Of a stretch of 64,000 bases of DNA, positions 1,917 to 64,000 are shown in pieces; position 1 is the first letter of the stretch, and each line of letters begins with the position of its first letter. The stretch spans positions 2,536,651 through 2,600,650 of the forward strand of contig OY970061.1 of NCBI GenBank assembly GCA_963705255.1, read 5' to 3'. Source of the stretch: an uncultured Methanoregulaceae archaeon. GTDB taxonomy: Archaea > Halobacteriota > Methanomicrobia > Methanomicrobiales > Methanospirillaceae. Below the pieces are notes generated by a model. The model worked only from the letters and a program-made list of their open reading frames with translations, was not told where the DNA came from and did no database searches. The position numbers and the translations under genes were made by a program.

Positions 1917-2681
1917 ATGGATAAAATTCGTTCTTTCGATATGGGTTTCTGGATCCTTTTATTGGGTATATTTTCTATCTTTTGGGGGTGGATTGGTTTA
2001 TTATTGGGTTTGAAGGAATTTTCAAGTTCCGGATTATATGATAGCGGGATTGGGTTAATCGGTGTTGGCGTGGGATTTGTGGCCGTAAGTCTTTCTTTAA
2101 AAACCGATAAATTGGTTAAATCAATAGCTGATTTAAATTTTGATGAAAAAATAGCAGCGATAAAAGGATATAGTAAAGAATTCAACCGTCATAAAATTGA
2201 AGACAAAAATGAAATTAAAAAAGGTTTAGATCGATTATATTGGGATTTAAAGGCAGTTTCTCATCTTAAAAAGTATGCTTCGAAAGAACAAAAGACTGAG
2301 TTAAGTGATACAGTTGAAGCAGCTATTTATCCGCCGAGAATTGATCCTGATGATGAAGACCTTTACGATATTGACGATGATATCGAAAACTTAATTGAAA
2401 ATATTAAAAAATTTATTGATCCATATGACTATAAAGCTCCTGCCATAGAATCAATTTCTATTATGGAAAAAAAAGGATCTTTAACAGATAATCAAAAAAT
2501 GATTGAATTGCAGATTGCCCAATTTGCTGTTACAATGATGATAGCGGTCGCTGCATTTTTTTATATTACATTCCCTGATGAATGGCCCTATTGGTTACGA
2601 GGGGGAATATCAATTGGTTCAGGTATAGTATTTGCAATTATTATTGCATTTATGTTTGAAAAAAAGTATATAAAGTCCTGA
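1917..2681 (+). CDS. Hypothetical membrane protein, AT-rich (possibly foreign)
   Basis: 254-aa ORF with two N-terminal and two C-terminal hydrophobic helices; much lower GC than core genes. Confidence 0.65.
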   Translation: MDKIRSFDMGFWILLLGIFSIFWGWIGLLLGLKEFSSSGLYDSGIGLIGVGVGFVAVSLSLKTDKLVKSIADLNFDEKIAAIKGYSKEFNRHKIEDKNEIKKGLDRLYWDLKAVSHLKKYASKEQKTELSDTVEAAIYPPRIDPDDEDLYDIDDDIENLIENIKKFIDPYDYKAPAIESISIMEKKGSLTDNQKMIELQIAQFAVTMMIAVAAFFYITFPDEWPYWLRGGISIGSGIVFAIIIAFMFEKKYIKS

Positions 2682-3038
2682 CAATGCGGAGAATCAGGGC
2701 CTAGTGAGGCTCATAGTTTGATTCTATTGGCTTTTCCTGGTCCAGATGATGAAAAGAAGGACAGAACTGAAAAGAAGCCTCATTTTGAAGGGTCGATATA
2801 AAGACTATAATAAAAAAATTTTCTATTTCCTTCAAGCCAATCAGCAACCGGCACAGCGCCAGGTTGATCACCTGAGGGTATTCTTTTGCCACGACCGGGG
2901 TCAAGTAAGTTGCTGTACAGTAGTCGATTGTGAGATGCTAGGATCTCTAAAATCTGCGGAGCAATTGAAAATTCGACTTTGCGCAGAATGTCTATTCTGC
3001 GCAAACCTTTATTTATTTGAGATAAGATAGAATAGAGC

Positions 3039-3959
3039 ATGGAAAGCGGGTATTTTTCGGAGTGGCTCAAAAGCTACCGGAATTACCTCCGTATGCGAAA
3101 CTACTCGACCCGCACACTTGACAGCTACGAGCAGGTTATCAAGCATTTCGCATATTACGTCTGGTTGCGTCGGCATACCGAAGTGTCAAAACTGGTGATA
3201 TACTGGAAAGATTTTGAAAAAGCCAGGCTTGATACCGATGTGGATGTAACTCCAGTTATGGTCAATGATTTTCTCTCGTTTGTATCCTCGATGCGGACCT
3301 ATAAGCCAAAAACATTCCATCGCATCATCTCGACACTCAGTTCGTTCTACCGGTTCCTTTATACCCAGGGCGCAGTTACATCAAACCCCCTGACAGGGAT
3401 TGATCGGCCACGGATTAAACAGCAGGAGATCAAGTACCTGAAACATAACCAGGTATTACGCCTGATCGAATCAATCGAGGATCCCCGCGATAAACTCATT
3501 GTGAGGACCATTTATGCTACGGGAGTACGGGTATCGGAGCTCTGCAATATGAATATCGAGGATATTGACTTCGATGAACATACCATCCGTATACGCGGAA
3601 AAGGAGACAAGATGCGGATCGTTTTTGTCGATGACGATACCCTGGCAGAGATTCTCAAATTCATTGGAAACCGTCTTGCCGGGCCCCTCTTTATCGGGCA
3701 ACAGGGAAAACATATCTCCTCCCGTGCCATCCAGCATATCTTCAAGCATTATGCTCCTTCAGGGATCACTCCCCATAAAATCCGGCACAGCTATGCAAGT
3801 GAACTCTATAAACGTTCGAAGAATCTCAGGGTCGTCCAGGAAAACCTGGGGCATACCTCTATCAAGACTACGGAGATCTATCTGCATACTGATATCGATG
3901 AGAGAAGGCAGGTATATCAGCAATATTTCCCTTTGTTCGGTTCGAATGAAAAGGCATAA
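3039..3959 (+). CDS. xerA: XerA-type tyrosine recombinase
   Basis: Catalytic motifs TGVRVSEL, GKGDK, HKIRHSYA, LGH...TTEIY; N-terminal SAM-like domain (YSTRTLDSY). Confidence 0.9.
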   Translation: MESGYFSEWLKSYRNYLRMRNYSTRTLDSYEQVIKHFAYYVWLRRHTEVSKLVIYWKDFEKARLDTDVDVTPVMVNDFLSFVSSMRTYKPKTFHRIISTLSSFYRFLYTQGAVTSNPLTGIDRPRIKQQEIKYLKHNQVLRLIESIEDPRDKLIVRTIYATGVRVSELCNMNIEDIDFDEHTIRIRGKGDKMRIVFVDDDTLAEILKFIGNRLAGPLFIGQQGKHISSRAIQHIFKHYAPSGITPHKIRHSYASELYKRSKNLRVVQENLGHTSIKTTEIYLHTDIDERRQVYQQYFPLFGSNEKA

Positions 3960-6218: not shown

Positions 6219-6291
6219 ACCCCCGTAGTGTAGCGGTCAATCATGCAGGACTTTGGATCCGGCGACACCAGTTCGAATCTGGTCGGGGGTA
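6219..6291 (+). tRNA. tRNA-Gln (anticodon TTG)
   Basis: Acceptor stem ACCCCCG/CGGGGGT with A1-U72, anticodon loop CTTTGGA, T-arm ACCAG-TTCGAAT-CTGGT, followed by a T-tract; no encoded CCA. Confidence 0.95.
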
Positions 6292-12602: not shown

Positions 12603-12794
12603 AATGAAACTCCTTATCTAATTCTGCCGCCCCACTCATAAATGTTAGGGAGGGTTCCCACGGTATCTCTTGTGGAGTACGGGAAACAACACCTCGGTGA
12701 ACAACACCAGCCTTGGGTTCTTTCATTTCGAGACATCGCAGGAGATGATGTCGATCAGGAGGCATGGAACCCCCCACTCAGTTTCCCGTTGGCT

Positions 12795-14645
12795 TTACCC
12801 CGGCTTCGCAGCAAGGGCCCGGTCGATCTCCCGTCTCAGGATCTCGCTCACCACTTTTCCGTCAACGGATCCCCGTACTTCCGCCATGACCACACCCATG
12901 AGAGGGCCGAGTGCTGCTTTACCTTTTTCGGCGACAAAGTCCGGGCGATCGGCGATGATCTTTCGTACAATCGATTCGAGATCGTCACGCGATACGGCGG
13001 GGGCGAGCCTGGAAAGTGCAGCATCCACGGTGCTGCCCGAAGCTACGCCACGGAGGAGATCTGGGATCGCTTCTTTTGCAGCCCGCCCCTGTTCGACAGC
13101 GTGCCAGATAGAGAGATATGCATCATCCGGTATGGTATGTATTGCCACTCCTCCCCGCCTGAGCTCTGTGGAGGTCGACAGGATAGTGAACACGGCGAGC
13201 TTGGGTTTTATCCCTTCCTGTATCGCGCGTTCGAACAAGGGGAGTTTGTCTGATGATACCAGCTGAACTGCATAATTCTTTTCGATCGCATACTTCTGTG
13301 CATAGCGCTCGGCCTTTGCAGTCAGCAGTTCGGGTACGGTGACCGAGGCCCACCGGGGATCATCGATGAATACCGGCAGCACGTCCGTCTCCGGGTACAT
13401 GCGTTCGGCCCCCGGCAGCGGGCGCATATATGCCGTGCTCCCGCTCTCGAGCATCTTGCGCGTCTCCTCCGGTACGGGTTTGTCTGAAAACGCGATCCGG
13501 GCCCGCATGATGACCTGCGCGATCGCGCACATGGCTTGTTTCTCGTTTGCTCCTGAAACGAGAATTACACAGTCATGCTTCCCGGCGCCGATATGCGAAC
13601 GCAGGCTGGCTACTTCTTCCGCGGTAACCCCGTACGCCGGGAGTTCGTCCGTATGGAAGATACCCCCAACCCCGCACTTCTTCGCATAATCTGACATCTC
13701 GCTACCCAGACGGCGCTCCGGCTGGATCTCCCGGCCTACGAGATCTGCAAACCCCTTCAGGGTAAGCGCACGGATCTTCTTTGCTTTTTTCAGCACCGCC
13801 GATCTGGTATCCCTGAAGAGATCGGTGACGTCCTTATCGCGTGAAACGGAAGCCCCCCTGGAACGGAGCTCGTCGCGTATCTCCAGGAGGTTCTGCTGCC
13901 GCTGCACCTCGCGCCTGACAACTTCGGCTATGAGATCGAGCTCCTGCACACCTTTGATCTCGACCCGTGCACCCCTGGCGATCGAGATGTTCACATCCTG
14001 CCGGATGGTACCCAGGCCGCGTTTCACGTTGCCGGTAGAACGGAGCACCATGCCGATATACTCGGCGACCTTCTGTACCTCCTCCGGCGTGTGCATACAT
14101 GGAGAGGTCGTTATCTCCACCAGAGGGATCCCGAGCCGGTCCAGCGAGAAGACCTCGTCTTTCACCCGCTGCGCCGCTTCCTCCTCGAGACAGATCGTCT
14201 CTATCCGCCCCCCGTCCGGGAGCACACCGTTGAATGCCACAAGTGCCGTGCGCTGGAACCCGCTGGTGTTCGACCCGTCGATCACGAGCTTGCGCATGGT
14301 ATGCACCTGCGGGACCGGTGTCATCCCGAACATCTTGCCGATCGTCAGGCAGATAGTAAGCGCTTCGTCATTGATCGGCGCCGGGGGTTCCTCATCGTTC
14401 TCGACAAGGCAGGTCGTGTCGTAGGTGTAGTACTGGAATTTGCGGTGGTGTTTCATCTCTTCCAGCGCCGCGCGATCGATCCCTCCCATCTCGCTGACCG
14501 TTGCCCGGAGATACCGGGAAAATTCACCACTATGCTCAGAAATCTCACGGAGTGCGGTCGGGCAGTGGCAGAACAGTTTCTCCTTCGTGTCCAGCTGCTG
14601 GTGGATCTCGATACCGGCAACCAGTCCGAGGGCCTTATAATCCAT
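12795..14645 (-). CDS. gatE: Glu-tRNA(Gln) amidotransferase subunit E
   Basis: GIEIHQQL, DGSNTSGFQRT, LDRLGIPLVEI, RPLPGAERMYPETD, C-terminal YqeY-like domain. Confidence 0.97.
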   Translation of the reverse strand: MDYKALGLVAGIEIHQQLDTKEKLFCHCPTALREISEHSGEFSRYLRATVSEMGGIDRAALEEMKHHRKFQYYTYDTTCLVENDEEPPAPINDEALTICLTIGKMFGMTPVPQVHTMRKLVIDGSNTSGFQRTALVAFNGVLPDGGRIETICLEEEAAQRVKDEVFSLDRLGIPLVEITTSPCMHTPEEVQKVAEYIGMVLRSTGNVKRGLGTIRQDVNISIARGARVEIKGVQELDLIAEVVRREVQRQQNLLEIRDELRSRGASVSRDKDVTDLFRDTRSAVLKKAKKIRALTLKGFADLVGREIQPERRLGSEMSDYAKKCGVGGIFHTDELPAYGVTAEEVASLRSHIGAGKHDCVILVSGANEKQAMCAIAQVIMRARIAFSDKPVPEETRKMLESGSTAYMRPLPGAERMYPETDVLPVFIDDPRWASVTVPELLTAKAERYAQKYAIEKNYAVQLVSSDKLPLFERAIQEGIKPKLAVFTILSTSTELRRGGVAIHTIPDDAYLSIWHAVEQGRAAKEAIPDLLRGVASGSTVDAALSRLAPAVSRDDLESIVRKIIADRPDFVAEKGKAALGPLMGVVMAEVRGSVDGKVVSEILRREIDRALAAKPG

Positions 14646-15873
14646 AGGCGCTCCTCCGCATGCATTCCCCTTTGAGATCCCTCTGCATGAGGGCTGCAGA
14701 TCTCTCCCGGTTCTTCTCGTTCCCAAGCACCCACATAAGCTTCACCAGCGCCGCTTCCGGCAGGGTATCCCCGGCTTCAATGACCCCTGCGGCCAGCAGA
14801 TCGCGGCCGGTATCATAGACCCGGTCGCACACCCTGCCGTTCATGCACTGGGAGGTCATGACGACCATGGTCCCCTCGTGGATGAGTCGCGCGAGACCCG
14901 GGATGAGCGCTGTGCTGACATGACCCAGGCCGGTCCCGGAGATAACGAGGCCCCTGTACCCTTTATACGCCTTCAGGACATCCGGGAACATCCCCGGGTA
15001 GAACTGGACAAGGGCGCAGTGCGGCTCCATTTTGTCCCGGAGTGCGAGGGAATTCGTACCCCGTCGTACGGCAGCATGTCCCAGCGTCACTTTCCTTGAG
15101 GGGAATTCAATCCCCCCGATGGGTGAAATACCCAGGCTCCGGAAGGCGTCCCTTCTCGAGGTGTGCATCTTCCGGACCCGGGTGCCCCGGTGGATGGAGC
15201 AGACATCATCGCTGGTCGTCGCATGCATCACAACCGCGACTTCCCCAAGATCGCTCGTTGCCGCCGCGGCAGCGCAGACCGCGTTCATCGCGTTGTCGCT
15301 GGACGGCCTGTCCGCGGAGCGCTGGGAACCAACAAATACGATCGGTACCGGGGTGTCGATCATGAAACTGAGCGCAGCGGCACTATATGCCATGGTGTCT
15401 GTCCCGTGGGTAACGATGATGCCCTGAGCGCCGCCACGGATCTCGTCATACACTGTCCGGGCAAGGTCCTGCCATATCGCCGGGGTCATGTTCTCGGAAA
15501 GGATCGTTGCGAGAGGGATGGTCCGGTAATTTGCTATCTCCGCAAGTTCGGGGATGGCGAGCAGGATATCGCTCGCATTGAACTGGCTGGTGACCGATCC
15601 GGTCCGGTAATCGATCCTGCTTGCAATGGTCCCACCGGTAGAGACAATGGAAAGGTTGGGGAGCTTGCTGTCCTGGACCACGTCAAGATTCCTTCCTGGC
15701 GCAGGTTCCGGGTGCCCGATGACCGTACAGGAGCCCGGGATAACCCCGATGTTGTAGCCTGAATCCAGCTTGACTACCGCCATGCCGTCGCGTTCGGTGA
15801 TGTAAATGCCGTTCCTGCTCATCCCGCCATGATCGCACCGGACAAGGTCCCCGGAAACTAACCGTGCCGTTAT
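14635..15873 (-). CDS. gatD: Glu-tRNA(Gln) amidotransferase subunit D (frame extends upstream to an ATA at 15873)
   Basis: STGGTIASRIDY, HGTDTM, GSQRSADRPSSD, KMHTSRRDAF; adjacent to gatE. Confidence 0.95.
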   Translation of the reverse strand: MTARLVSGDLVRCDHGGMSRNGIYITERDGMAVVKLDSGYNIGVIPGSCTVIGHPEPAPGRNLDVVQDSKLPNLSIVSTGGTIASRIDYRTGSVTSQFNASDILLAIPELAEIANYRTIPLATILSENMTPAIWQDLARTVYDEIRGGAQGIIVTHGTDTMAYSAAALSFMIDTPVPIVFVGSQRSADRPSSDNAMNAVCAAAAATSDLGEVAVVMHATTSDDVCSIHRGTRVRKMHTSRRDAFRSLGISPIGGIEFPSRKVTLGHAAVRRGTNSLALRDKMEPHCALVQFYPGMFPDVLKAYKGYRGLVISGTGLGHVSTALIPGLARLIHEGTMVVMTSQCMNGRVCDRVYDTGRDLLAAGVIEAGDTLPEAALVKLMWVLGNEKNRERSAALMQRDLKGECMRRSAYGL

Positions 15874-17352
15874 GCTACCAGCCTCCGCGCTTCAGCTATG
15901 AGGTGCTCTTCTGCAGTTGCAAGTTTTACCTGTTTTTTGCTGACTGATTCTGCATCACGGTGATGCTGTTTCCTCCGATCAGCAAGTGCAGCGCTCACTG
16001 CTTCCGGTGCCGGCCCGCCAGGAGCCTTCCGGAGCTCAAGAGAATATTTTACGTCGAGCATACTGTCAATATCCTGCTGTGTAAGGCCTTTTCCTGCAAG
16101 CGAGATTCCTCCGCCGACCTCTCCTGCGGCTTTTTCGAGCGTGGCAAGGGAGAGATCCCCTTTCCGGGCTGCCCTACCGACGATGTTGTGAGCCGTGCGG
16201 AAGGGAAGACCAAAGGACCTCACAAGGGAATCGGCAAGTTCGGTTGCCGTTGAGAACCCTTTCCCTGCCTCCTCTCTCATCCGTTCTGTATCGAACGATG
16301 CGCTGGCGAGCATATCGGCAAGGAGCCGCAGGCTCTCACCGGCATCCTCCATCCCGCGCCAGAGGTTCGGCGTGAGTTCCTGGAGATCGCGATTGTAACT
16401 CATCGGCAGGCCCTTGACCGTTACCAGTGCCCCGCTGAATGCCCCGAAGACCGATCCGGATTTTGCCCGCATGATCTCGGCAGTATCCGGGTTCTTCTTC
16501 TGGGGCATGATAGATGAAGTGGAGCAAAACGCGTCATCAAAGGTCACGAACTTCACAAACGAGGTGCTCCAGAGGATCAGTTCTTCGCAGAGCCTGCTGG
16601 TATTGGCCATCAGGATGGTGAGGTCTGCGAGGGTTTCAAGCGCAAAGTCGCGGGCAGCTACGGCGTCCATAGTGTTGGTGACAAGGCCATCGAAGCCCAG
16701 AAGTGCAGCGGTGAATTCGCGGTCTATGGGATAGCCGGTGGATGCGAACGCGGCTGCGCCAAGGGGGGACTGGTTTACCCGTGCGTATGCCTCGTTCAAC
16801 CGGTCAAAATCGCGGGAGAATGCCTGTTCGTACGCAAGGAGGTGGTGGGCAAGGGTGGTGGGCTGGGCATGCTGCAGGTGAGTGAACCCGGGCATTGCGC
16901 TCTCCGTATGGTTCTCCGCGAGAGTCAGGAGCACTTCCCGGACTTTCAGTACCGCGGCCATCTGTGCGATCAGATCTTCGCGCAGCCGGATCCTGATGCA
17001 GGTCACGACTTCATCGTTCCGCGATCGTCCCATGTGCATCCGCCCTCCTGCCTCAACCCCCAGCGATTCGATCAGGAGCGACTCGATCCCCGCATGCACA
17101 TCCTCGAACCGTTCATCGAACACCTCTTCCGGTATACCTGCGTCATGGAATCTGAGTAATGCAGGAAGGAGCTGGCGTGTCGTGGCACGATCATTGATCT
17201 TCTGCCTGTCCAGCATCAGAACATGGGCAATATCCACGAGGATATCCGCTTTGGCTATATACCGGTCTGCACGCATCGATGAGAGGAACTGCATCATCTC
17301 TTCCGTCCTCTCACCGGAAAGGCGCCCCAGACCTCACAACGTCGCTTCGCAT
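15870..17352 (-). CDS. argH: Argininosuccinate lyase; one extra base near 17331
   Basis: GRSRND, MPGFTHLQHAQP, SSIMPQKKNPD; N-terminus MRSDVVR/LGRLSGER is restored by removing one base. Confidence 0.95.
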
Positions 17353-31714: not shown

Positions 31715-32938
31715 ATGCTTTACCGAACAGTTCCAAAAACCGGTGACAACCTCTCCATCCTCGGTTTCGGCTGCATGCGTCTTCCCTCAACACGGACCGG
31801 AGGAGTGGATGAAGCACGCGCCATCCGCCAGATCCGGCACGCGATCGATGGCGGTGTCAATTATGTTGACACAGCCCCTGTCTACCACCTCGGGAAGAGC
31901 GAGCAGGTGCTGGGCAGGGCGCTTGCCGGCGGCTACCGGGAGAAAGTCCGGATTGCCACGAAACTCCCCCACTGGTCCGTGTACGAACGTGCCGACATGG
32001 ACCGTATCCTTGATGCGCAGCTGAAGACCCTGCAGACCGACCACGTCGACTACTACCTGCTCCACAGTCTTGGCAAAGGCAGTTTTGAAAAACTTCTCGG
32101 TCTTGGCGTCCTCGAATTTCTCGACGCCGCAAAGAGAGACGGGAGGATCCGGAACGCCGGCTTCTCGTTCCATGACAATCTGGCGGCCTTCAAGGAGATC
32201 GTCGATTCGTATGACTGGCAGTTCTGCCAGATCCAGTACAACTATCTCGATGAGCAGAACCAGGCAGGGACCGAAGGGCTCAGGTATGCGGCAGAGAAAG
32301 GGCTGGCCGTCATCGTCATGGAACCTTTGCGGGGCGGGAACCTTGCCGGCAGGATCCCCCCGTCGATCCAGAAGATCTGGGACGAAGCACCGCTCAAACG
32401 GTCTCCGGCCGAATGGGGCCTCCGCTGGGTCTGGGACCACCCGGAAGTGACCGTTGTCCTCTCGGGCATGAACGATGAAGCACACATCGATGAAAACCTC
32501 CGGGTTGCGGGCAGTGCCCTCCCGGGCTCCCTTTCCGGCGATGAACACGCACTTATTGGCAGGGTGAGGGATGAGTACCGGCGGCTGATGAAGGTCGGAT
32601 GCACGGGCTGCGGCTACTGCATGCCATGCCCGGCCGGGGTCGATATCCCCGGTTGTTTCGCAAGCTACAACGCCCATGCACTCTTCCCCCATGACAGGAC
32701 GGCAAAGTTCCAGTATATCGGAAGACATGGCGGCCTTATCGGTGACAGGTCCCATGCCGGGTTGTGCCGGCAGTGCGGGAAGTGTGCCAAATCCTGTCCG
32801 CAGCACCTCCCGATCCCATCCCTGATGAAAGACGTCTCAAAGGAGATGGAAGGGATGATGGGCGTCGCCGTACCGGTCCTCCGGGGGTACTCTGGTGCGC
32901 GAACAGGGCCGGGAGGTACGCCGGGCAATAACCGGTGA
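31715..32938 (+). CDS. Aldo/keto reductase with C-terminal 4Fe-4S domain
   Basis: LGFGCMRLP, NYVDTA, VMEPLRGG, CTGCGYCMPCP, CRQCGKCAKSCPQ; extreme C-terminus uncertain. Confidence 0.92.
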   Translation: MLYRTVPKTGDNLSILGFGCMRLPSTRTGGVDEARAIRQIRHAIDGGVNYVDTAPVYHLGKSEQVLGRALAGGYREKVRIATKLPHWSVYERADMDRILDAQLKTLQTDHVDYYLLHSLGKGSFEKLLGLGVLEFLDAAKRDGRIRNAGFSFHDNLAAFKEIVDSYDWQFCQIQYNYLDEQNQAGTEGLRYAAEKGLAVIVMEPLRGGNLAGRIPPSIQKIWDEAPLKRSPAEWGLRWVWDHPEVTVVLSGMNDEAHIDENLRVAGSALPGSLSGDEHALIGRVRDEYRRLMKVGCTGCGYCMPCPAGVDIPGCFASYNAHALFPHDRTAKFQYIGRHGGLIGDRSHAGLCRQCGKCAKSCPQHLPIPSLMKDVSKEMEGMMGVAVPVLRGYSGARTGPGGTPGNNR

Positions 32939-54590: not shown

Positions 54591-54796
54591 CATCGACCCT
54601 GCTTACCGTGATCGGAAATCACCCTATCTCTTTTCCGGTCGGCTTTATCCGGGTCGACCAAACTCTTCCATATCTGCCGCGTGTGGAACGGACCCGGAAC
54701 CGGATCGGTACGGAGGTCGTCGTCGCATCTCTGGTAATGAGGGCACTGAGGATTTCACGGTACCGGACAGGACGTACGCTGGTAAAAAAGTTCTGG

Positions 54797-55159
54797 TTAT
54801 TCATCACACTTGAACTCGATCTCGTCTCCCATATGTTCGGATCCCCAGTCGCAGAGATCGTCGAGTATCGGCATCAGGGACCATCCCTTCTCCGTGAGCG
54901 TGTACTCTACCTTCGGCGGGACCTGCGGGTAGACCTTCCGGATTACGAGGCCGTCTTTCTCGAGTTCCCGGAGTTCCTTCGTGAGCATCCGCTGGGTGAT
55001 CCTGGGCTGTACTTTATCCATGATCTGGCTGAACCGGAGCGTCCCGTCCTTGAGCATGTACATGATCAGCGGTTTCCACTTGCCTCCGATAACGTCCAGC
55101 GTCGCCTCGATCGGCCAACTGTATCTGTATTTTTTCGGCGGAGTTTCCATTGGTATCAA
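54797..55159 (-). CDS. HxlR-family winged-helix regulator
   Basis: TLDVIGGKWKPLI, ITQRMLTKELRELE, VPPKVEYTLT. Confidence 0.93.
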   Translation of the reverse strand: MIPMETPPKKYRYSWPIEATLDVIGGKWKPLIMYMLKDGTLRFSQIMDKVQPRITQRMLTKELRELEKDGLVIRKVYPQVPPKVEYTLTEKGWSLMPILDDLCDWGSEHMGDEIEFKCDE

Positions 55160-55268: not shown

Positions 55269-55820
55269 ATGACGAAGAGGAATGAAAATAATTCAAAGTA
55301 CCTGGTTGCGTTTTTTTCGCGCCCGGGGAATAACTATGTCAACGGGACGATCGTCGACCTGCCGGTCGGCAACACGGAAGTCCTGGCAAAGATGATCCAC
55401 GGGATGGCGGGAGGTGACCTCTTCCGCATCGAGGCGGTGAAGCCATATCCCCGGGATTATACCGATACCACCGAAGTGGCACGGGAAGAACTCCGCAGGA
55501 ATGCCCGGCCGAAACTGAGCGGCCGGGTGGAAAACATAACGTCCTATGGTACGATCTTCCTCGGCTACCCCAACTGGTGGGGAACGATGCCGATGCCGGT
55601 CTTCACCTTCCTGGAGGAATCCGATCTCTCCGGAAAGACCATTGCCCCGTTCTGCACGCACGAGGGGAGCGGTCTCGGCCGGAGCGTTTCCGATATCCGG
55701 AAGATCTGCCCGCGGTCGACCGTCCTGGACGGCCTTGCCATCCGGGGCGGGGACGTGAGGAATGCGAAGGACGCGGTGGCCGGGTGGCTGCGCGGACCGG
55801 GGATGAAGAAGGAGACGTGA
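55269..55820 (+). CDS. Flavodoxin-like protein
   Basis: AFFSR..GNTE, LGYPNWWGTMP, PFCTHEGSG. Confidence 0.92.
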   Translation: MTKRNENNSKYLVAFFSRPGNNYVNGTIVDLPVGNTEVLAKMIHGMAGGDLFRIEAVKPYPRDYTDTTEVAREELRRNARPKLSGRVENITSYGTIFLGYPNWWGTMPMPVFTFLEESDLSGKTIAPFCTHEGSGLGRSVSDIRKICPRSTVLDGLAIRGGDVRNAKDAVAGWLRGPGMKKET

Positions 55821-55855
55821 CCGCGAGGTCCCGCCTGAAAGATCTGGTGAAAAAA

Positions 55856-57056
55856 ATGCTGTACAGGAAAATGCCGAAGAACGGCGATGAACTCTCCGTT
55901 CTCGGGTTCGGCTGCATGCGTCTGGCATCAAGGGAGGACGGCTCGATCGATGAAGCGAGGGCGGCAAAACAGCTGCGCTCCGCGATCGACCAGGGTGTGA
56001 ACTATGTCGATACTGCCTGGCCTTATCACATGGGGCAGAGCGAGCCGTTCGTGGGGCGTGCCCTTGCGGACGGGTACCGTGCGAAAGTAAAACTCGCGAC
56101 AAAACTCCCGTCCTGGCTCATCGAAAAGCGGGAGGACATGGACCGGTTCTTGAATGCCCAGCTGGAGAAACTCAAAACCGACCACATCGACTATTATCTC
56201 GTCCACGCTCTCGTTGGGGACCTGTGGGACTCGGTCGGGAAGCTGGGTGTGGCGGATTTCCTCGACCGGGCGAAGGCCGACGGCCGCATCCGGAACGCGG
56301 GCTTCTCGTTCCATGGTGCATCGGAGGACTTCAGCCGGATCGTGGACGCGTACGACTGGGGCTTCTGCCAGATCCAGTACAACTTCCTGGATGAAAAGAA
56401 CCAGGCCGGCACCGCAGGGCTTGAATACGCGGCCTCAAAAGGTCTTGGCGTCATCATCATGGAGCCCCTCCGGGGAGGGAACCTCACGAGGACCGTGCCC
56501 CCCGCGGTGAGAGAGATCTGGGACGAGGCGCCGGTAAAGAGGACTCCCGCCGAATGGGCCCTCCGCTGGATATGGAACCATCCCGAGGTCACGGTCGTCC
56601 TCTCCGGGATGAATGACGAGGCGCATATCCGGGAGAATCTCAGCATTGCGGACCAGGCGTACCCCAACTCGCTGACGAACGCGGAACTGCAGCTGGTAAA
56701 ACGGGTGGAGAAGAAGTACCGCGAACTGATGAAAGTGGCCTGTACCGGCTGCCAGTACCTGCATGCCCTGTCCTTCCGGGGTAAATATCCCGCTCTGTTT
56801 CGAGCATTACAACAACCTGACCCTCGCCGACAATCCCGACGGGGAAAAATTCATGTACGCAGCCCGGCTCGGCGGCGCTGTCGCCCTCGGGACGCCCGAG
56901 TTTGCATCCCTGTGCGTGCAGTGCGGGCAGTGTGCCGAGAAGTGCCCCCAGCACATCGATATACCCACGGTCCTCGAATCCGTTGTGGAGGAACTCGAGG
57001 GACCTGATCTAAAAGAGAGGGCTGCCATGGCAAAGAAGATGTTCAAGCAGGTGTAA
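55856..57056 (+). CDS. Aldo/keto reductase with 4Fe-4S domain (paralog of 31715); extra C near 56759
   Basis: LGFGCMRL; CTGCQY/CMPCP split by the frameshift; CVQCGQCAEKCPQ. Confidence 0.92.
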
Positions 57057-57090: not shown

Positions 57091-58071
57091 ATGGACTATG
57101 TGAAACTGGGAAATACCGGGATGGATGTGTCCCGGATCTGTCTGGGCTGCATGAGTTTTGGCGGGGAAGGAAAGGGATTATTTCCCTGGGCACTTGACGA
57201 GAAGAGCAGCCGCCCGATAATCAAAAAAGCCCTTGACTACGGTATCAATTTTTTTGATACGGCCAATATGTACTCTGACGGAAGGAGCGAAGAGATCGTT
57301 GGCCGGGTGTTAAAGGATTATGCAGACCGGGATGAAATTGTCCTCGCGTCGAAGGTTTTTTTCCCGACGCGAAAAGGCCCGAATAGTGCCGGGCTCTCCC
57401 GGAAGGCGATCCTGAGCGAGATCGACAGGAGCCTCAGGAGACTGGGAACCGACTACGTGGATCTCTACTACATCCACCGATGGGATCACCATACTCCCAT
57501 CGAAGTGACGATGGAAGCACTGCACGATGTCGTGAAGTCCGGGAAGGCACGGTATATCGGTGCCTCTTCCATGTACGCATGGCAGTTCCTCAAGGCAAAC
57601 CAGGTAGCGGAGAAGAACGGGTGGACGAAGTTTGTGGCGATGCAGGATCACTACAGTCTGATGTACCGCGAGGAGGAAAGGGAGATGCTTCCGCTCTGCA
57701 GGGAGGAAAAGATAGCCGTCGTTCCATGGGCCGCGCTCGCATCGGGAAGACTGGCACGCGAATGGGGGGCATCAACCCCCCGTTCGAAGATCGATGAGAT
57801 CGGCAACCATCTCTTCGCCGCAACATCCGGGACGGACAGGAAGGTTGTTGATCGACTGGGGGAGGTAGCGAAAAAACGAGGGGTGCCACGGGCCCAGGTC
57901 GCGCTCGCCTGGCTGCTGAAAGACCCGGTCATCACTCCCATTGTCGGTCCCACGAAAATCTCTCATGTTGAGGATGCGGTAGCTGCACTTTCGATAACGC
58001 TGACACCGGAAGAGATTGCGTTGCTGGAAGAACCGTACGTGCCGCACCCGGTGATTGGGATAGATGTATAG
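57091..58071 (+). CDS. Aldo/keto reductase (aryl-alcohol dehydrogenase-like)
   Basis: GINFFDTANMY, LGTDYVDLYYIHRWD, YIGASSM. Confidence 0.93.
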   Translation: MDYVKLGNTGMDVSRICLGCMSFGGEGKGLFPWALDEKSSRPIIKKALDYGINFFDTANMYSDGRSEEIVGRVLKDYADRDEIVLASKVFFPTRKGPNSAGLSRKAILSEIDRSLRRLGTDYVDLYYIHRWDHHTPIEVTMEALHDVVKSGKARYIGASSMYAWQFLKANQVAEKNGWTKFVAMQDHYSLMYREEEREMLPLCREEKIAVVPWAALASGRLAREWGASTPRSKIDEIGNHLFAATSGTDRKVVDRLGEVAKKRGVPRAQVALAWLLKDPVITPIVGPTKISHVEDAVAALSITLTPEEIALLEEPYVPHPVIGIDV

Positions 58072-58131
58072 ACTCGTTTACCCAGAACGGAAATGACCAC
58101 CAGAGTCTCGCGAAAAACGAAAGAACAGATT

Positions 58132-58548
58132 ATGAACAAACCGGACGATGGATGTGAAAGGGTAATCTTCCCGAAAGGCGGGAAGGTTTCGAACGACCAT
58201 TTTATCGGGGATGTATGGCTGGAAATGCTGATCCCGGACGACCGCATGTTCAACTGCCCCATAGGGAACGTAACGTTTGCACCCGGTGCGAGGAACAGCT
58301 GGCATACCCATCCCGGGGGCCAGATCCTGCTCGTTACCGGGGGCAAAGGATTTTCGCAGGAAGAGGGAAGGAAGGCACAGGTAATCCGGGGAGGGGATGT
58401 TGTGAAGGTACCGCCGGGCGTGAAACACTGGCACGGTGCCGCGCCCGACAGCTGGCATACCCACCTCGCGATCATGCCCGATTCCCGGAAGGGAGACGCC
58501 GAATGGTTCGAGCCGGTAACTGATGAAGAGTACCGGAAATTACTATAA
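58132..58548 (+). CDS. Cupin-domain protein
   Basis: WHTHPGGQIL, KHWHGA. Confidence 0.92.
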   Translation: MNKPDDGCERVIFPKGGKVSNDHFIGDVWLEMLIPDDRMFNCPIGNVTFAPGARNSWHTHPGGQILLVTGGKGFSQEEGRKAQVIRGGDVVKVPPGVKHWHGAAPDSWHTHLAIMPDSRKGDAEWFEPVTDEEYRKLL

Positions 58549-58693
58549 CCTGTTTTTTTATCCCTTCCCAAATACGTTCTTCAAAAAAGGCCCCCAACGA
58601 AATCCCCACCTACACGGACTTTTGCCCTCCAAACGTGGCTAAACATGTCCTCAATTTTTCCCGTCGACAAACTTCTGCAATTTCCGGGCCCTG

Positions 58694-59935
58694 TTCCGCC
58701 TTTTTGCGAATTATGACCTCTAATCCGGGCGATTTTTGGAAAAGAAGTACAACCGGCAACGTCGCGGGTTCCATTGTACCAGAATTCCCTCAGGGAGTCC
58801 CATGCCCATATGGGTCTCCTGTAAGAGGTCCTGACAACGGAGCCTCAGGGAAGATATGGGAACAGGTCCGTGACTGATTCATGTGCCGGCAGAATCCCGG
58901 CCGGGAAAAAAGATTGGATGAGAATTTTCCGGTGAATCACGTTGACGGAAAATCCTGAACGGTCAAAAATAGTACCAGGAAATTTTCCCGGCACTCACCC
59001 TGCCAACACCATGGCCGCGAGCGGCCTCCCATCCCGGTCGATCTCGATGAGCCCGGCCGCTGTGACGAGGAAGAACCGCCAGGTCCCATGCTTCGACCGG
59101 AGCCAGAGCTCGGCCGAGACTGCCGCGTTCCGGGCGATGATCCGGAGCTGTGCGATCTCGTCTTTGAAGTCGTCTGCAATCTCGCTCGCCGCCCCGAGGA
59201 TCCGGGCCGCGAACATCACCCGGATGAACGCGATCGGGAGCTTCGAGACGATCGAGATGTCGTAGATCCGCTCGGGGCTGAGGCCCGCGAGCTGGACGAC
59301 GCCACGCAGCTGTGCGATGGGTATCGCCTCAGCGAGCGCCCGGTGCGGACGCGGTCCGCGGCTCACCGGCAGCACCTCCAGGTGGTTTCTGAGTTGGTTG
59401 CCGGATTTTGTACCGGCGGGGTTTTGGATTCTCTCATGCGTTGTTACCTCCTTTCTGTTGTAGTGTCGCGGGGCCCTTTGACAGAACAGGATTAGCTCTG
59501 GGTATATAAGCGCTTGTATGAATAAATTGGAAAACGCGAAAACGGAGGATTTTGGTGGCGATTGGGAGCGAACGGAGCGTAATGGGATGAGATTGATGTG
59601 CGCAAAAATGGGAACCGGATACAGGTTCACCGGCGAGACCCTCTTACGGGGCCTTGTCCGTAAATCCTCAATCCGGCCATCCCGACCCACGGTACCCTGA
59701 CCGGTCCGGAGTCCGGGCCCTGAAACACTGCTAATTATTACCTCCATTATTCCCGTGGGAGAACGCCCGGGAATTCCGGTCTCCATTCCGCGTTTTCCGG
59801 AATTATGACCTCCCGAACCGGGAGATCCAGGGAATAGCGGTACAACCGGCACCGTTCCGGGCCCCGTTGTACCGGAATTGCCTCTGGCACTCCCTGACCT
59901 CACCGGGTCTCCCGGGAAGGGGCATTACGACGGAG
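58694..59935. repeat. Two imperfect ~150-bp direct repeats (58694-58851 and 59786-59935)
   Basis: Shared blocks GAATTATGACCTC, GTACAACCGGCA, TTGTACC.GAATT.CCTC and GGGTCTCC in the same order and similar spacing. Confidence 0.75.
58995..59366 (-). CDS. 123-aa hypothetical protein, possibly restriction-endonuclease-like fold (GTG start)
   Basis: GGAGGTG SD before GTG; (M)SRGPRPHRALAEAIPIAQLRG...YDISI...AFIRV...ELWLRSKHGTWRFF. Confidence 0.7.
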   Translation of the reverse strand: MSRGPRPHRALAEAIPIAQLRGVVQLAGLSPERIYDISIVSKLPIAFIRVMFAARILGAASEIADDFKDEIAQLRIIARNAAVSAELWLRSKHGTWRFFLVTAAGLIEIDRDGRPLAAMVLAG

Positions 59936-60436
59936 GCGTCCTTCGAGAACCCGTGCCGGGGCAGGGGTGCGACCGGTCTGTGTTGAGCCCGGATCAATAC
60001 GGAAAATATTTTTTGCCGGCACCAGATCCGGCTGGAAAAATTCCGGCACGAAGAGAGTTCAGAGCCCGGGAAATTTTTTACTTGGGACTCTTGTGCCGGC
60101 AAAAAATTTCCGATTCGTCCGGTTCTGCCGGGAAAATTTTTCACCGCGAACGCGTCTGGCGGCCGGACATTTTCCGGTCGGGGGAACATATCCACTGAGT
60201 TGGCTGGGCCAGATTTTCCAGTGGCCGGCCGCAATTGCTGCTCCGGTGTCGGCCGCATGGGTGGTGCAGGCCCGGCCTCTCTTTTGATTGACGGACCCGG
60301 AACCGGGTTGGTACTGAGGCCGTCGTTCTTCTCCGGAACCGAGGGCACTGATAAGCGCCGTACTATCTGGTCAGAGCGAGAAGGTTCAGACCATGCATTT
60401 TTTACCGTCAGAAGACTATCATCTTTTATCGGAACC

Positions 60437-60728
60437 ATGACATCGGCTGGGGAGATACGGGAAATCCTGAGGAAGTGCCTGCCGGAGATCCGTGAAAAAT
60501 ACGGCGTGACATCCATCGGTATCTTCGGATCCTACGCACGCGGAGAAGCAGCCCCGGCCAGTGATATCGATATTATTGTAGAATTCGACCGGCCGATCGG
60601 GTGGGAACTTGTCGACCTCGCCGATTATCTCGAATCTATTCTCCATCACAAAGTAGACCTGGTCATACGGAGATCCCTCCATCCTCTTATCCGGGATACC
60701 ATCCTCGCCGAGGTACAGGTACGCATGA
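60437..60728 (+). CDS. Minimal nucleotidyltransferase antitoxin (MNT); fused to the next gene by a probable extra G
   Basis: IFGSYARGE...SDIDI; removing one G gives EVQYA* with an ATGA overlap. Confidence 0.88.
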
Positions 60729-61072
60729 CCGCCCGGTCTCCCGCGTTGTACCTTTCAGAAATCCTCTCCTCGATGGATAAGATCGAACGTTACGTTGCCG
60801 GATTATCCTACGATGAATTCATCTTTAGCGAGCAGACCGTCGACGCAGTTGAACGAAACATTGAGAAGATCGGTGAAGCTGCGGCGGCGATCCCGGATGA
60901 TGTCAGGGAACGGCATCCGGAAGTGCCCTGGAAAACGATCGTGGGCCTGAGAAACAAAGTTATTCATCATTATTTTGCCGTAGATCACGAAGTCATCTGG
61001 CAGATTGTCACGAAGAATATCCCGGCGACCAAGGGAAAAATTGCTAAGATCCTCCGGGAATATTCCCGGTAA
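60725..61072 (+). CDS. HepT-like (DUF86) HEPN RNase toxin
   Basis: IGEAA, VPW, RNKVIHHY (Rx4HxY). Confidence 0.9.
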   Translation: MTARSPALYLSEILSSMDKIERYVAGLSYDEFIFSEQTVDAVERNIEKIGEAAAAIPDDVRERHPEVPWKTIVGLRNKVIHHYFAVDHEVIWQIVTKNIPATKGKIAKILREYSR

Positions 61073-61300
61073 CCGGCGGGTCATCCGCTTCCATACCGGC
61101 CGCGTGCGTGTGGGGCGGGGCCGGGCTGGTACTGATTGGGCGGACCCGGCGCCGGATCGGGTTGAGGCCGTCTTCAATCTCCGGGACCGAGGGCACTGAG
61201 AATTTGCTGGTACCGATGATGTCGTTGAGTGCAGGATGAAACAATATATTCATCTGACAACATACGCGAGATAGAGAACAGCAGGAGGTTTTCCCAAACA

Positions 61301-61690
61301 ATGGCTCCCGACTCTGGCGAATGATTCCGGCAGGCTCAATACGATCTCGGTACTGCCGAATCTCTCATCTCCGCCGGGCGCTATCCTCCGGTGATCTTCT
61401 TCTGTCACCTTGCACTCGAAAAAGCATTGAAAGCGTTGTACGTCGAGAAATTCAAGGATAATCCGGATAAGACTCACAGCCTGATCTTTCTCGTTGAAAT
61501 CCTCGAACTCGAAGTGCCTCAGCAGTATATGGACTCTTTGTTTGTCATTAATCGTATCGGAATTACCGGACGATATCCGCATAACCTTGATGTGGTTCTT
61601 GAACAATATACCAAAGAGAAGATGGAAAAAATCCTCAGCGAGTCAAAGGAGATTCTCACATGGTTGACGCACAAATCCTCGAAGCGGTAA
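61301..61690 (+). pseudogene. HEPN-domain protein with in-frame TGA at codon 8
   Basis: GGAGG SD; MAPDSGE*FRQAQYDL...FFCHLALEKALKA...KTHSL...RYP. Confidence 0.8.
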
Positions 61691-62001
61691 ATTTTTTCAG
61701 CGCTGTCGTGAGAAAGAACGGCGTTCATATTCACGATATTATCCTGTTCGGGTCTTCGAGTACCGGAACATCATCACCAAATAGTGATATCGATGTCGCG
61801 ATCATTTCCAGCGATTTTGCTGGCAGGGATATTTTTGAGCGGGCTCTCATGACGAAAGATGCAGAGATCCAGACCGTCAGGAAGTTCAAGATTGCCCTTG
61901 ATGTGCTCACCCTGACCCCGGAAGAATACCAGGATCCGACGTCCCTGATTGCTGGTACACTCAGAAAGGGAATCGTTGTGCCGATCACTTCATCTGCCTG
62001 A
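61660..62001 (+). CDS. Nucleotidyltransferase-domain protein (MNT)
   Basis: ILFGSS...SDIDVAIISSDF; paired with the HEPN gene. Confidence 0.88.
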   Translation: MVDAQILEAVNFFSAVVRKNGVHIHDIILFGSSSTGTSSPNSDIDVAIISSDFAGRDIFERALMTKDAEIQTVRKFKIALDVLTLTPEEYQDPTSLIAGTLRKGIVVPITSSA

Positions 62002-62524
62002 GATAATCCGACACGTGCGTTCAGTCCCGGATCTCTTTCCAGCGGGGCCGCGTGCGGGGGGGCGGGGGCCGGATGCGGAGGGGGGCTGCCGTCAAGTGCC
62101 GCGACCGGAAATAACCCCCTCGACTTTTTGAAAAACCCTCGTTCACAATCCCCAGTCCTGGCCAACAACCCAGACCACGTCCCGACCCGACTTTTCCACC
62201 TGTAATTGATTTATAGCGGCATATTTTTTGGACGAGAATTATGGGAATTCTGCCAATACGAGCCCAAAATCGCCTCCTCTGAAAACAAGCGACAGATGTT
62301 TTTACGTTATCGGCCGAAAAAGTGTACCGGATCAGGCCATCGGAGGCCAGAATAAGCCCCGATGGCTTTACCCCTCCGGACACCGACGTTTCCGCCGGAG
62401 ACCCCACTCCGGCGATCGCGAGGGTAGCAACCCTGAGTAATCCACGACGACAGCAGATACGGGGATATTTTAAATTGGAAAAGAACCAATGAGAACCAGC
62501 CAAAGAAGCAAGCGAGGTGACAAT

Positions 62525-62662
62525 ATGCCAACGAGTAAGAAACAATTGGTGAAGCTGAACCAGGCGAAGAAGGCCAAGGCAGAAGAGCTCTCGAAGCAGG
62601 CGGCTGGTGGCAGCAAAGAGGCCCAGAAAAAGCTCAAGAAGCTTGAGAAAAAGCTCAAGTGA
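62525..62662 (+). CDS. 45-aa Lys-rich small protein (below ORF-track cutoff)
   Basis: MPTSKKQLVKLNQAKKAKAEELSKQAAGGSKEAQKKLKKLEKKLK; GAGGTGA SD; T-tract after the stop. Confidence 0.75.
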   Translation: MPTSKKQLVKLNQAKKAKAEELSKQAAGGSKEAQKKLKKLEKKLK

Positions 62663-62970
62663 GCCGCCGGCGCCTTGCTCATCTTTTTTATGGTTTTTCA
62701 ATGCGTATACCGGGGGCACTAAGCAGCGCCGGTACTGACGGGTCGTGCCGCGTGCGGTGGGGCGGAGCCGGGCTTGTCGTGGTTGGGCGGACCCGGGACC
62801 GGATTTAGTACCGACCCGTCGTCAATCTCCGGAACCGAGGGCAATAAGGAGCGCCGGTACTGATGTATTACCATGAAACGTGGGTTAAAGAACGAATAAG
62901 ATTTGAGCACATTTTCCTTCAATTCGGAAATAAGGAGTATATAAGACGAGTTAAAAGCGAGGATTCATTT

Positions 62971-63998
62971 TAGGGGCTGTACTAGATTAGAGTTTTATAT
63001 ATCCCCCCACAGCCTCAACATTTCGAGTTGTTGCATGGGTGTTCTGTAATTAAACATGAACTCACACTTTGACGAGCCGCCGAGTGTAGCTCAGCTGCCC
63101 CAGCCGTTGACAATCCGCCGAATATCCCAGCTGCCTCACATCACCGCGCCATCAGCGCGAACACACCCCATCCAAGATATTCACGCGTGTACGCGGCGTA
63201 GCGTTTTGGTTCCAAAGTCAGTTTGGTTCTAACCTCTTTCGCGAAGTCGTCGTCGGGATTCGCTTCGAGCCATTGGCGCATGGTGAGCCACTTGGCCGCT
63301 TCGTACCTGTCCCAGCCTTCCTGGTCAGCCAGAACCATTTCCACAACATCGTAGTCGAGGTCGCTAAAAGACGCGAGAAGTTCTGGAAGCATGAGAAAGT
63401 CGGAGATAGAATTGGCAAAGCATTCCCTGGCAACGTCTTCCGTCGGGGGTAACCGCACCCAGTAGGGCTCGCCGATGAGGATGATTCCTTCGTGGCGGAG
63501 ACTCTTCGCCAGAAGCTCGATGGTGCCGGCGACGCCCCCACCGATCCACGTGGCACCGAGACAGGCTGCCACACCGACCTTTTCGTCGGCGACGTAGCCG
63601 GCAGCATTGCCCTGGATGAACTCGACTCGATCGGCAACTCCGAGTTCTTCAGCGCGGTGTTTCGCCTGCCCGGTGAACAACGGGCTCATGTCGATGCCGA
63701 CGCCGGTGATTCCGTAATCGCGTGCCCAGGTGCACAGCATCTCGCCCGAACCGCTGCCGAGGTCGAGCACACGAGCCCCCGGTTCCAGGCGCAACGCTGC
63801 GCCGAGAGTGGCGAGATTTTCTGGTGTGAACGGGTTATGGATGCGGTGAGCACTTTCGGTGATGTTGAAGATACGTGGGATGTCCAATGCACAACCTCCT
63901 TGTACTAATCTGTGTAATAACTGGAATATACCCTTAGTGACTGTTGTGGATAAGGGTTTTAAATATCACACAACAGCCTCAACGTTTCGAGTTGTTGC
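62971..63998. repeat. 64-bp direct repeats at 62971-63034 and 63935-63998
   Basis: Ungapped alignment 52/64 identical by manual count; 3' core ACAGCCTCAAC(A/G)TTTCGAGTTGTTGC. Confidence 0.85.
63141..63887 (-). CDS. Class I SAM-dependent methyltransferase, YjhP-like (bacterial type, TTG start)
   Basis: DIPRIF..ESAHRIHNPFT, VLDLGSGSGEMLCTWA, WDRYEAAKW; GGAGG SD. Confidence 0.9.
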   Translation of the reverse strand: MDIPRIFNITESAHRIHNPFTPENLATLGAALRLEPGARVLDLGSGSGEMLCTWARDYGITGVGIDMSPLFTGQAKHRAEELGVADRVEFIQGNAAGYVADEKVGVAACLGATWIGGGVAGTIELLAKSLRHEGIILIGEPYWVRLPPTEDVARECFANSISDFLMLPELLASFSDLDYDVVEMVLADQEGWDRYEAAKWLTMRQWLEANPDDDFAKEVRTKLTLEPKRYAAYTREYLGWGVFALMAR

Positions 63999-64000
63999 TT

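Follow-up and report, generated by a model that had tools for sequence, protein, structure and literature searches.

What shapes the row of genes and GC-rich direct repeats at the end of the chromosome contig of an uncultured Methanoregulaceae archaeon, and by what means are its genes exchanged? The window, i.e. the whole stretch of 64,000 nucleotides (nt) analysed here (assembly GCA_963705255.1, contig OY970061.1, positions 2,536,651 to 2,600,650 of the forward strand), comes from a Methanoregula genome, and a sequence-only reading of it had proposed a non-integron gene-capture array in which toxin-antitoxin (TA) pairs and a small gene are separated by a repeat, here called R, serving as a recombination site of its own. 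Judged from sequence comparison, the locus is a lineage-specific chromosomal cassette array of Methanoregula and a few related genera, situated at a hotspot upstream of uvrA in most genomes examined. The array occupies one locus in the genus, it is modular, the order of its modules is scrambled between species with their orientation kept, and it is devoid of the hallmarks of integrons, of Xer sites and of miniature inverted-repeat transposable elements (MITEs). As for the way in which modules move, recombination guided by the repeats and performed by the host is tentatively favoured, at a little under an even chance.

R is a GC-rich direct repeat of about 124-135 nt, present in 7-9 copies on a single strand, from window position 54682 to contig base 568. 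The record is a single 2,600,650-nt contig, the end of the window is the end of the record, and the array resumes at the contig start; an 887-nt metagenome contig, which may derive from the genome's own source sample, spans the junction between contig end and contig start. The copies, scored with R1, a covariance model based on sequence alone and derived from 69 full R copies, are the following:

54682..54774, + strand: c0, the first copy of the array here, a short variant with an internal deletion (R1 E 3.6e-13, model positions 44-133)
60246-60382, + strand: c1, full, with a 5' half of the rarer subtype (R1 E 1.5e-24)
61094-61219, + strand: c2, full (R1 E 1.4e-27)
62041-62108, + strand: c3, degenerate, with an internal deletion between short internal repeats (R1 E 7e-4)
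62708-62748, + strand: c4, 3' end only, in fixed register with c5 and with nothing between them (R1 E 1.8e-4)
62750-62870, + strand: c5, full and near the family consensus (R1 E 1.4e-29)
contig bases 113-241, + strand: a further full copy, beyond the window end
contig bases 515-568, + strand: the 5' half of a further copy, beyond the window end

All R1 matches in this 2.6 Mb genome (7/7) fall in the array locus and on the + strand, and R was found nowhere else in it. Deletions of the c3 type are also present in other genomes. Every element that the sequence-only reading had listed (repeats, TA pairs, small gene) was found at its place, as were the stretch of about 25 nt duplicated at the last copy (62714-62738 and 62841-62865) and the short distances of 25-85 bp from a stop codon to the next repeat, measured here as about 25, 42 and 30-85 nt. 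Repeats do occupy the proposed span of 60251..62865, and the array is longer, adding 54682-54774 and contig bases 113-241 and 515-568. The proposed common orientation stands for the repeats, which all lie on one strand, and fails for the cargo, two genes of which (63141-63887 and 54797-55159) lie on the minus strand; the array genes of relatives also lie on both strands.

The distribution of R is narrow. An exact two-block R pattern occurs in 16 places among 185,579 species genomes, all of them in Methanoregula, Methanoregulaceae or unclassified Methanomicrobiales metagenome-assembled genomes. With c2 as the BLAST query, R was detected in 51/201 family genomes (this genome counted), namely in 44/80 of the window's genus (this genome left out), in 1/2, 2/14 and 3/13 of three other genera and in none of the remaining 15 genera; the absences are soft, because many family genomes are fragmented. 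In complete or near-complete congeners (related genomes are denoted by G and a number), every R1 match falls within a single locus and on a single strand (G171, 9/9; G085, 11/11; G131, 8/8; G078, 8/8), which together with this genome makes 43/43 in five complete genomes of the genus. G004, from a different genus, has 8 R1 matches in at least five loci, on both strands and beside ordinary accessory genes. An iterated nhmmer profile retrieved 123 copies in 17 loci, with 2-12 copies per locus and a single orientation inside every locus. A viral origin of R was also considered and discarded: six pattern matches on viral contigs are attributed to chance, none being confirmed by the R1 model.

These data bear on the possibility of a MITE-like selfish repeat, spread randomly and regardless of gene boundaries, an outcome that the sequence-only reading had named as fatal to its own proposal when calling for a scan of the genome and its relatives. 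R is indeed short, multi-copy and dispersed in G004, and it is not coding, because its copies differ by indels of 1-3 nt. However, the scan placed 43/43 matches of the genus at one locus and on one strand, R has no terminal inverted repeats and its copies stand at module boundaries, which makes a MITE extremely improbable.

The chromosomal site is likewise largely constant. Nine genomes (this one, G171, G085, G144, G092, G078, G160, G161 and G200) have the array upstream of uvrA; here, uvrA is at contig base 3348, beyond the last R copy, and its 5' region is single-copy and matches none of the R copies. In four congeners without BLAST matches, the left flank is conserved to 1.2-3 kb from uvrA and the array is absent, and one of the four, G005, retains a single degenerate R copy, situated upstream of uvrA at a distance of about 670 nt, with homology to a module of G120 in the stretch that follows.

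The modular behaviour of the array was assessed by comparing genomes of related species; the pairs are non-independent (related genomes, shared cassettes) and no probabilities were derived from them. Different arrays share homologous blocks, which begin or finish at R copies. Among 151 inter-genome R pairs with a common flank, 77 share the upstream cargo only, 72 the downstream cargo only and 2 both. Shared blocks of at least 350 nt keep their orientation relative to R in 151/151 cases, and their order is near random, 37/84 pairs of blocks being discordant and 17/37 genome pairs being colinear, mostly with only two blocks. A fixed gene order, the other result that the sequence-only reading had set against itself and for which it had proposed the order comparison, was thus not encountered among these relatives.

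The module encoding an MNT antitoxin and a HepT toxin illustrates this behaviour. It is present in 6/16 related arrays and, in metagenome contigs, in 18 loci (this genome and 17 more) at ≥83.5% nucleotide identity, 17 of which have R upstream, in most cases at a distance of 32-36 nt; 22 MNT/HepT loci at ≤82.5% identity have no R at all. Homologues outside arrays resemble the module only between its stop codon and a point about 52 nt upstream of its ATG. Where cargo is 90-95% identical, colinearity of the pair extends over at most 190 nt on the left and 281 nt on the right, and reshuffling is apparently fast. No strain-level intermediates were found, the next level being 100% identity with identical flanks. 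Recent horizontal transfer, considered as a source of the shared blocks, was not supported: only 8/29 blocks are more similar than the uvrA genes of the same genome pair, and the blocks are therefore read as a reordering of a common pool and not as proof of recent horizontal capture.

The sequence of R was then compared with that of known recombination sites. The attC cores RYYYAAC and GTTRRRY occur in order in 0/123 copies, which bears out the absence of such cores noted from the sequence alone; the window copies contain zero RYYYAAC and two stray GTTRRRY. No hairpin was detected in three copies folded as DNA on both strands (z -1.23 to +1.00 against shuffles), RNAalifold predicted 0 pairs from 69 copies, and the pairs of columns with the highest mutual information do not match in the Watson-Crick manner and stem from two subtypes of the R 5' half. 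A scripted nested consensus fold on a gap-stripped alignment gave 80.0% of cells paired versus 80.2% in shuffled alignments, with covariation of 0.140 versus 0.148; this fold does beat slid controls (25-44%), as expected, because the structure was derived from the same consensus. A search for a dif-like core (arms 9-11, spacers 4-10) found none, the best inverted repeat having a mean complementarity of 0.56-0.60 versus a column-shuffled mean of 0.46 and maximum of 0.53. The sole gathering-level match to Rfam 15 in the window is a tRNA (6219-6291), and a search of 60200-62900 with E values up to 1 returned only PAGEV, at 14.9 bits versus a gathering score of 61.1.

What R does possess is a conserved sequence with internal periodicity. 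About 20 alignment columns are at least 90% conserved among the 69 copies, from two genera, and column similarity reaches 0.383 at an offset of 25, versus 0.281 expected, indicating sub-repeats of about 25 nt; the best single pair of sub-repeat windows is only borderline (0.65 versus a shuffle maximum of 0.61). Copy-to-copy identity is about 70%, with 0.702 within genomes (reached by 15/1000 permutations), 0.693 between genomes and 0.708 for adjacent copies; diversity is star-like around the consensus, and the most similar pairs are those closest to it. Tandem R pairs with a period of 123-125 nt number 6 among the 11 adjacent pairs in 195 copies; they include c4-c5, with a projected start-to-start distance of 125 nt, and 5 others at 123-125 nt. 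A palindromic GC(A/G)TGC motif is found at the R 5' end in 68/129 heads. Two further ideas were tested on these features and dropped. A duplicated GC(A/G)TGC core flanking each cargo is not general (8/121 post-tail windows versus 3/181 control windows), and growth of a CRISPR-like or target-site-duplication-like kind is unsupported, the identities of adjacent and distant copies being 0.708 and 0.700.

The point of exchange was sought by following the linkage of R to its neighbours along its length. The R body (profile positions 41-130) shows identities of 0.697 in pairs with orthologous upstream cargo, 0.698 in pairs with orthologous downstream cargo and 0.693 in background pairs. The flanks show a clear excess of identity (upstream 0.49-0.67 versus 0.28-0.48; downstream 0.60-0.89 versus 0.31-0.48), the linkage to upstream cargo stopping near position 40 and that to downstream cargo climbing gradually from about position 120. 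Likelihood change points per pair are scattered, without a single peak. A single fixed crossover, as in integrons, does not describe these data, because the R body is associated with neither of its neighbours; exchange guided by homology fits the dispersed breakpoints at least as well as a dedicated site.

The search for an enzyme gave one candidate in the window:

3039..3959, + strand: XerA-type tyrosine recombinase (NF040815 287.5 bits, cut-off 220; TIGR02249 96.6 bits, cut-off 265)

This gene, 57 kb from the array, is the sole PF00589 match in the genome and scores as XerA, and it would be a candidate trans-acting enzyme only. No integron integrase (IntI) is encoded in the genome, which extends to the whole genome what had been said of the window. 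The linked recombinase that the sequence-only reading suggested looking for beyond the 64 kb did not materialise: no recombinase gene lies in or beside any of 10 arrays, and XerA, the only tyrosine recombinase of this genome, lies in the window itself. Moreover, no integrase, transposase or resolvase was found among 149 open reading frames (ORFs) of five arrays, no serine recombinase (PF00239) in this genome, G171 or G131, and clustering of 405 array ORFs revealed no recurrent candidate for a hidden recombinase, the families that do recur being MNT, small minus-strand proteins near uvrA duplicates, uvrA and flank genes. In nine other array genomes, PF00589 genes lie outside the arrays; XerA homologues (307 aa, or 305 in G155) are present in 8/9 of the other genomes with hits, 12.7-320 kb off where on the same contig, and G168 (85% complete) has no PF00589 match.

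Two explanations compete most directly for these observations. In the favoured one, compact gene modules separated by directly oriented R copies of about 124 nt, non-palindromic and built of sub-repeats of about 25 nt, would be excised and re-inserted via recombination between R copies, which would scramble their order between species and always keep their orientation. The exchange would be homology-guided, would take place within the conserved blocks of R by means of the host recombination machinery, perhaps with the help of a repeat-binding protein, and would need no integrase acting at one fixed point. We infer this recombination step from the comparison of arrays, and a homology-guided form of it is preferred because the breakpoints are spread, the R body goes with neither of the flanking cargoes, and searches for a core, a hairpin or a linked recombinase yielded none.

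The other is a dedicated non-integron site-specific system, in which R or sub-sites at its ends would be recognised by a recombinase encoded in trans (XerA or an unrecognised family) and modules would move as circles; this is considered possible, if on the doubtful side. It would account well for the orientation kept in 151/151 blocks with random order, for a consensus-conserved R with about 20 near-invariant columns and without homogenisation within genomes, for sub-repeats resembling an array of binding sites, for cargo-free tandem pairs in fixed register, for the presence of one array at one site per genome and for that of XerA in every genome checked except G168. However, under such a system the R body should travel with one neighbour, whereas it is linked to neither and change points are scattered; R has no inverted-repeat core of dif or att type, no hairpin and no covariation; no recombinase is encoded in or beside any of the 10 arrays, and this genome has XerA only and no serine recombinase. 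The more specific proposition that R is the site of a previously unrecognised archaeal cassette platform, equivalent in function to an integron and comprising a double-stranded, iteron-built site, a recombinase encoded elsewhere (a moonlighting XerA or a new family), promoter-bearing modules and a fixed hotspot, is regarded as rather unlikely.

Several findings nevertheless weigh against host recombination guided by homology. Copies that are about 70% identical are a poor substrate for ordinary homologous recombination, and they are not homogenised within genomes, as recombination or gene conversion should make them. The 20 or so conserved columns combined with a star-like diversity look like recognition by a protein rather than mere homology, and six tandem pairs in one register suggest that cargo is removed or inserted precisely where one unit meets the next. 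The R pairs used for the flank, body and change-point counts are not independent. Finally, neither excision, nor circles, nor strain-level polymorphism was observed directly in the assembled contigs and species-level genomes available. Two joints in assembled metagenome contigs that go back along the sequence (63986 to 61097 and 61146 to 61112) were considered as circle junctions and rejected, both stemming from the single 887-nt contig that crosses the contig end into the R copies at the contig start; a joint that skips 3963 nt (58795 to 62759) has just 22 nt on one side.

R could also have another primary role, as an iteron-like array that binds a host protein (an insulator, a terminator, a chromosome-organisation or a fork-barrier element) or as a satellite-like tandem unit, the cassette pattern being a side effect of its copies recombining now and then. 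The conserved columns and the sub-repeats, the tandem arrangement with a period of 123-125 nt, the solitary degenerate copy upstream of uvrA in an array-free genome and the spread of the G004 copies over both strands and at least five loci, next to ordinary accessory genes, would all suit such a role. Conversely, a site of host function is not expected to be absent from congeners, or reduced in them to one relic, nor to coincide exactly with module boundaries, some 25 nt past stop codons. R lacks an AT-rich box of promoter type, is oriented according to the array and not to the neighbouring gene, and adjoins no Cdc6/Orc1 gene, the Cdc6 genes lying at 1.97 and 2.50 Mb; GC skew, the other replication landmark checked, is flat. 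Another primary role is thus judged improbable.

The surroundings of uvrA call for one more comparison. Additive islands and integration hotspots comprise tRNA-proximal islands, islands of the tycheposon type and composite islands of the staphylococcal cassette chromosome (SCC) kind. The present array resembles them by its hotspot beside a core gene, by its variable presence and content in close relatives and by direct repeats between units. It differs from them in that R does not appear to derive from the end of the core gene nearby, each unit is a single gene rather than a decayed element, no integrase is present and order is permuted rather than extended at one end. If the array were such an island, R copies would be att scars left by serial integration of plasmids or viruses near uvrA, the integrases having since been lost. 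Consistent with this are the fixed place beside uvrA, which is empty or nearly so in congeners, a low-GC island of 2.7 kb that abuts the truncated last R copy, and duplicates of the uvrA 5' region in relatives, which show that other elements insert there with target duplication. However, no integrase or remnant of one was found in the 149 ORFs of five arrays or near the 10 arrays, the modules are single genes or pairs with tight boundaries and not decayed elements, accretion alone cannot produce a permuted order, and no true R copy was found on viral contigs (six pattern matches, 0 by R1), so that this origin is very improbable.

The low-GC island (24-40% GC) extends from about 600 to 3240 of the contig start, between the truncated last R copy and uvrA; it encodes an AbrB/MazE-like gene, an apparently frameshifted ORF and two ORFs of 185 and 403 aa without family, and it looks like recently acquired foreign DNA. 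The partial duplicates cover the first 300 nt or so of uvrA and the sequence upstream; they were seen in G085 (oriented 31724-32104), G092 (15244-15479 and 16171-16411) and G200 (12786-13084), with genes, e.g. for a YhcG-type nuclease, sitting between the duplicate and the intact uvrA. These duplicates are taken to be the signature of a second, separate insertion process at this site.

The cargo of the array in this genome, between c0 and the contig start, consists of the following features:

54797..55159, - strand: HxlR/MarR-like redox regulator (NCBIfam NF047364/NF047367, E about 1e-25, under the curated cut-offs)
55577-57007, + strand: ORF of an aldo/keto reductase with a 4Fe-4S region (PF00248), the true start being probably later
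57091-58071, + strand: second aldo/keto reductase (PF00248; E 2.2e-77 in this cargo block)
58093-58548, + strand: cupin (PF07883, 7.1e-10)
60440-61072, + strand: MNT antitoxin and HepT toxin, type VII TA (PF01909, 1.1e-18; PF01934, 4.5e-28)
61391-61690, + strand: HEPN (PF05168, 8.1e-16)
61660-62001, + strand: MNT (PF01909, 1.1e-9)
62132-62416, + strand: non-coding-looking element of about 280 nt that recurs in relatives (blastn)
62489-62662, + strand: lysine-rich small ORF of 57 aa, or 45 aa from an internal ATG at 62525, 90% identical to its G092 counterpart and without Pfam family
63141-63887, - strand: S-adenosylmethionine-dependent methyltransferase (PF13847/PF13649), in a module running from 62871..64000 to about contig base 43

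The homologue of the first aldo/keto reductase in G085 matches PF00248 plus Fer4. The two TA modules are the gene pairs expected of type VII MNT/HepT and HEPN/MNT systems, with PF01909, PF01934 and PF05168, and they are cargo here and not mechanism; the NCBIfam equivalog scores of their proteins are below cut-off. MNT and HepT form a single 210-aa frame in this assembly and separate overlapping ORFs in relatives, and this apparent fusion is probably an assembly indel, because one base, at position 60718, is missing from the metagenome contigs of runs X1 and X2. The completeness of the genome is 89.5% despite its single contig, which fits scattered indel errors of this kind. The HEPN/MNT module (61301..62001) is common to G147, G078, G171 and G161 (blastn). 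In its HEPN frame, an ATG at 61301 is followed by an in-frame TGA (61322-61324) and the frame is open from 61325, i.e. a nonsense mutation or a base error. The local TA copies may hence be damaged, given the probable indel at 60718 and the TGA at 61322.

The region of the lysine-rich ORF (62364-62731) reaches a depth of 45-870 in run X5, presumably a soil metagenome, versus 0-3 for the rest of the stretch; a near-identical sequence is perhaps very abundant in X5, on another replicon or as RNA. The methyltransferase module is 92.8-93.4% identical in G147 and G092. The gene lies between the two copies of a 65-nt direct repeat (62970-63034 and 63934-63998, 82% identical) that contains an AT-rich TATA-like box; both copies are inside the module common to G092 and G147.

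Between the cupin gene and c1, two further elements were delimited by blastn:

58606-58795 and 59723-59882: two copies of an element of about 180 nt, flanking the next element
58962-59879: element of about 900 nt, flanked by these copies

A 302-aa minus-strand ORF within 58606..59882 has no Pfam family. Both are found again in relatives' arrays and, in this genome, near 828 kb; with the element of about 280 nt, three further repeat families (about 180, 900 and 280 nt) occur in relatives' arrays and elsewhere in this genome, near 828 kb, 2.13 Mb and 1.31 Mb. Just upstream of c1, a cluster of short motifs of the CCGG...AAAATTT type (59980-60160), which includes a 19-nt inverted repeat with 95% complementarity (60008-60026 and 60089-60107), was also observed.

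Beyond this genome, cargo was surveyed with Pfam on the 149 ORFs from five arrays plus this genome's ORFs, the ORFs of the other 11 arrays being left out. The families retrieved are, by category:

TA and defence: MNT/HepT, HEPN/MNT, ParE, HicA, AbiEii, ApeA, Fic, YhcG-type nuclease
hydrolases and redox proteins: alpha/beta hydrolases, aldo/keto reductases, cupin, PNPOx, RibD_C, DJ-1/PfpI
transferases: methyltransferases, GNAT
regulators: TetR, HxlR, PAS-HTH
transport: MFS, LysE, CDF, a P-type ATPase

Among known systems of short-site-bounded modules, integrative mobile elements exploiting Xer (IMEX) and the pdif modules of Acinetobacter carry modules, including TA, that are bounded by short sites and moved by the host Xer recombinase without an integrase of their own. 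The present array is similar in its TA-containing modules with short sites at their boundaries and in a genome where XerA is the only tyrosine recombinase. It is unlike pdif modules in that R copies are all direct and not alternating, R is four times longer than dif, and R has no conserved 11-nt arms and 6-nt spacer, the two inverted arms and spacer by which dif is defined (PMC8371274, PMC2958812).

Integrons are the closest comparison. Archaeal integrons and clusters of attC sites lacking integron integrases (CALINs) are treated by Ghaly et al. (2022, PMC9668308), and the array agrees with the criterion for clusters given there (at least 2 sites, <4 kb apart), having same-orientation sites <4 kb apart, compact cassettes and an order variable between relatives. 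As in integron arrays, sites have one orientation, modules are compact with 1-2 genes, a repeat of about 60-140 nt starts just past the stop codon, TA systems are frequent, and module order varies between relatives with orientation kept; as in CALINs, many arrays have no integrase beside them. Unlike integrons, the array has no attC cores (0/123), no hairpin or covariation and no IntI in the genome, and its modules appear to carry a promoter region of their own. Moreover, attC is conserved in structure and travels with the upstream gene, whereas R is conserved in sequence and its body is linked to neither neighbour. The non-integron, cassette-like array of variable order put forward by the sequence-only reading is hence upheld; the recombination site attributed to it is less so, as no crossover point, core or linked recombinase was found, and so is the notion of gene capture, only 8/29 blocks exceeding uvrA in identity. 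No published description of R or of the array was retrieved by full-text literature searches, which did not cover subscription journals.

In summary, single-gene cassettes are stored and reshuffled by no well-understood platform other than integrons, whose archaeal examples reported so far use canonical attC sites. The array described here shows an integron-like population behaviour (one site, one orientation, scrambled order, richness in TA systems) without integron parts, in globally important wetland methanogens. Whatever the mechanism, it offers a concrete locus that can be tested by PCR. If a dedicated enzyme proved to be involved, the array would represent a new recombination system, which might serve as a tool in a group that has few of them for genetics. 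Should the host machinery be enough, a short diverged repeat would turn a chromosomal hotspot into a modular store of accessory genes, which would bear on the circulation of defence and stress genes in archaea.

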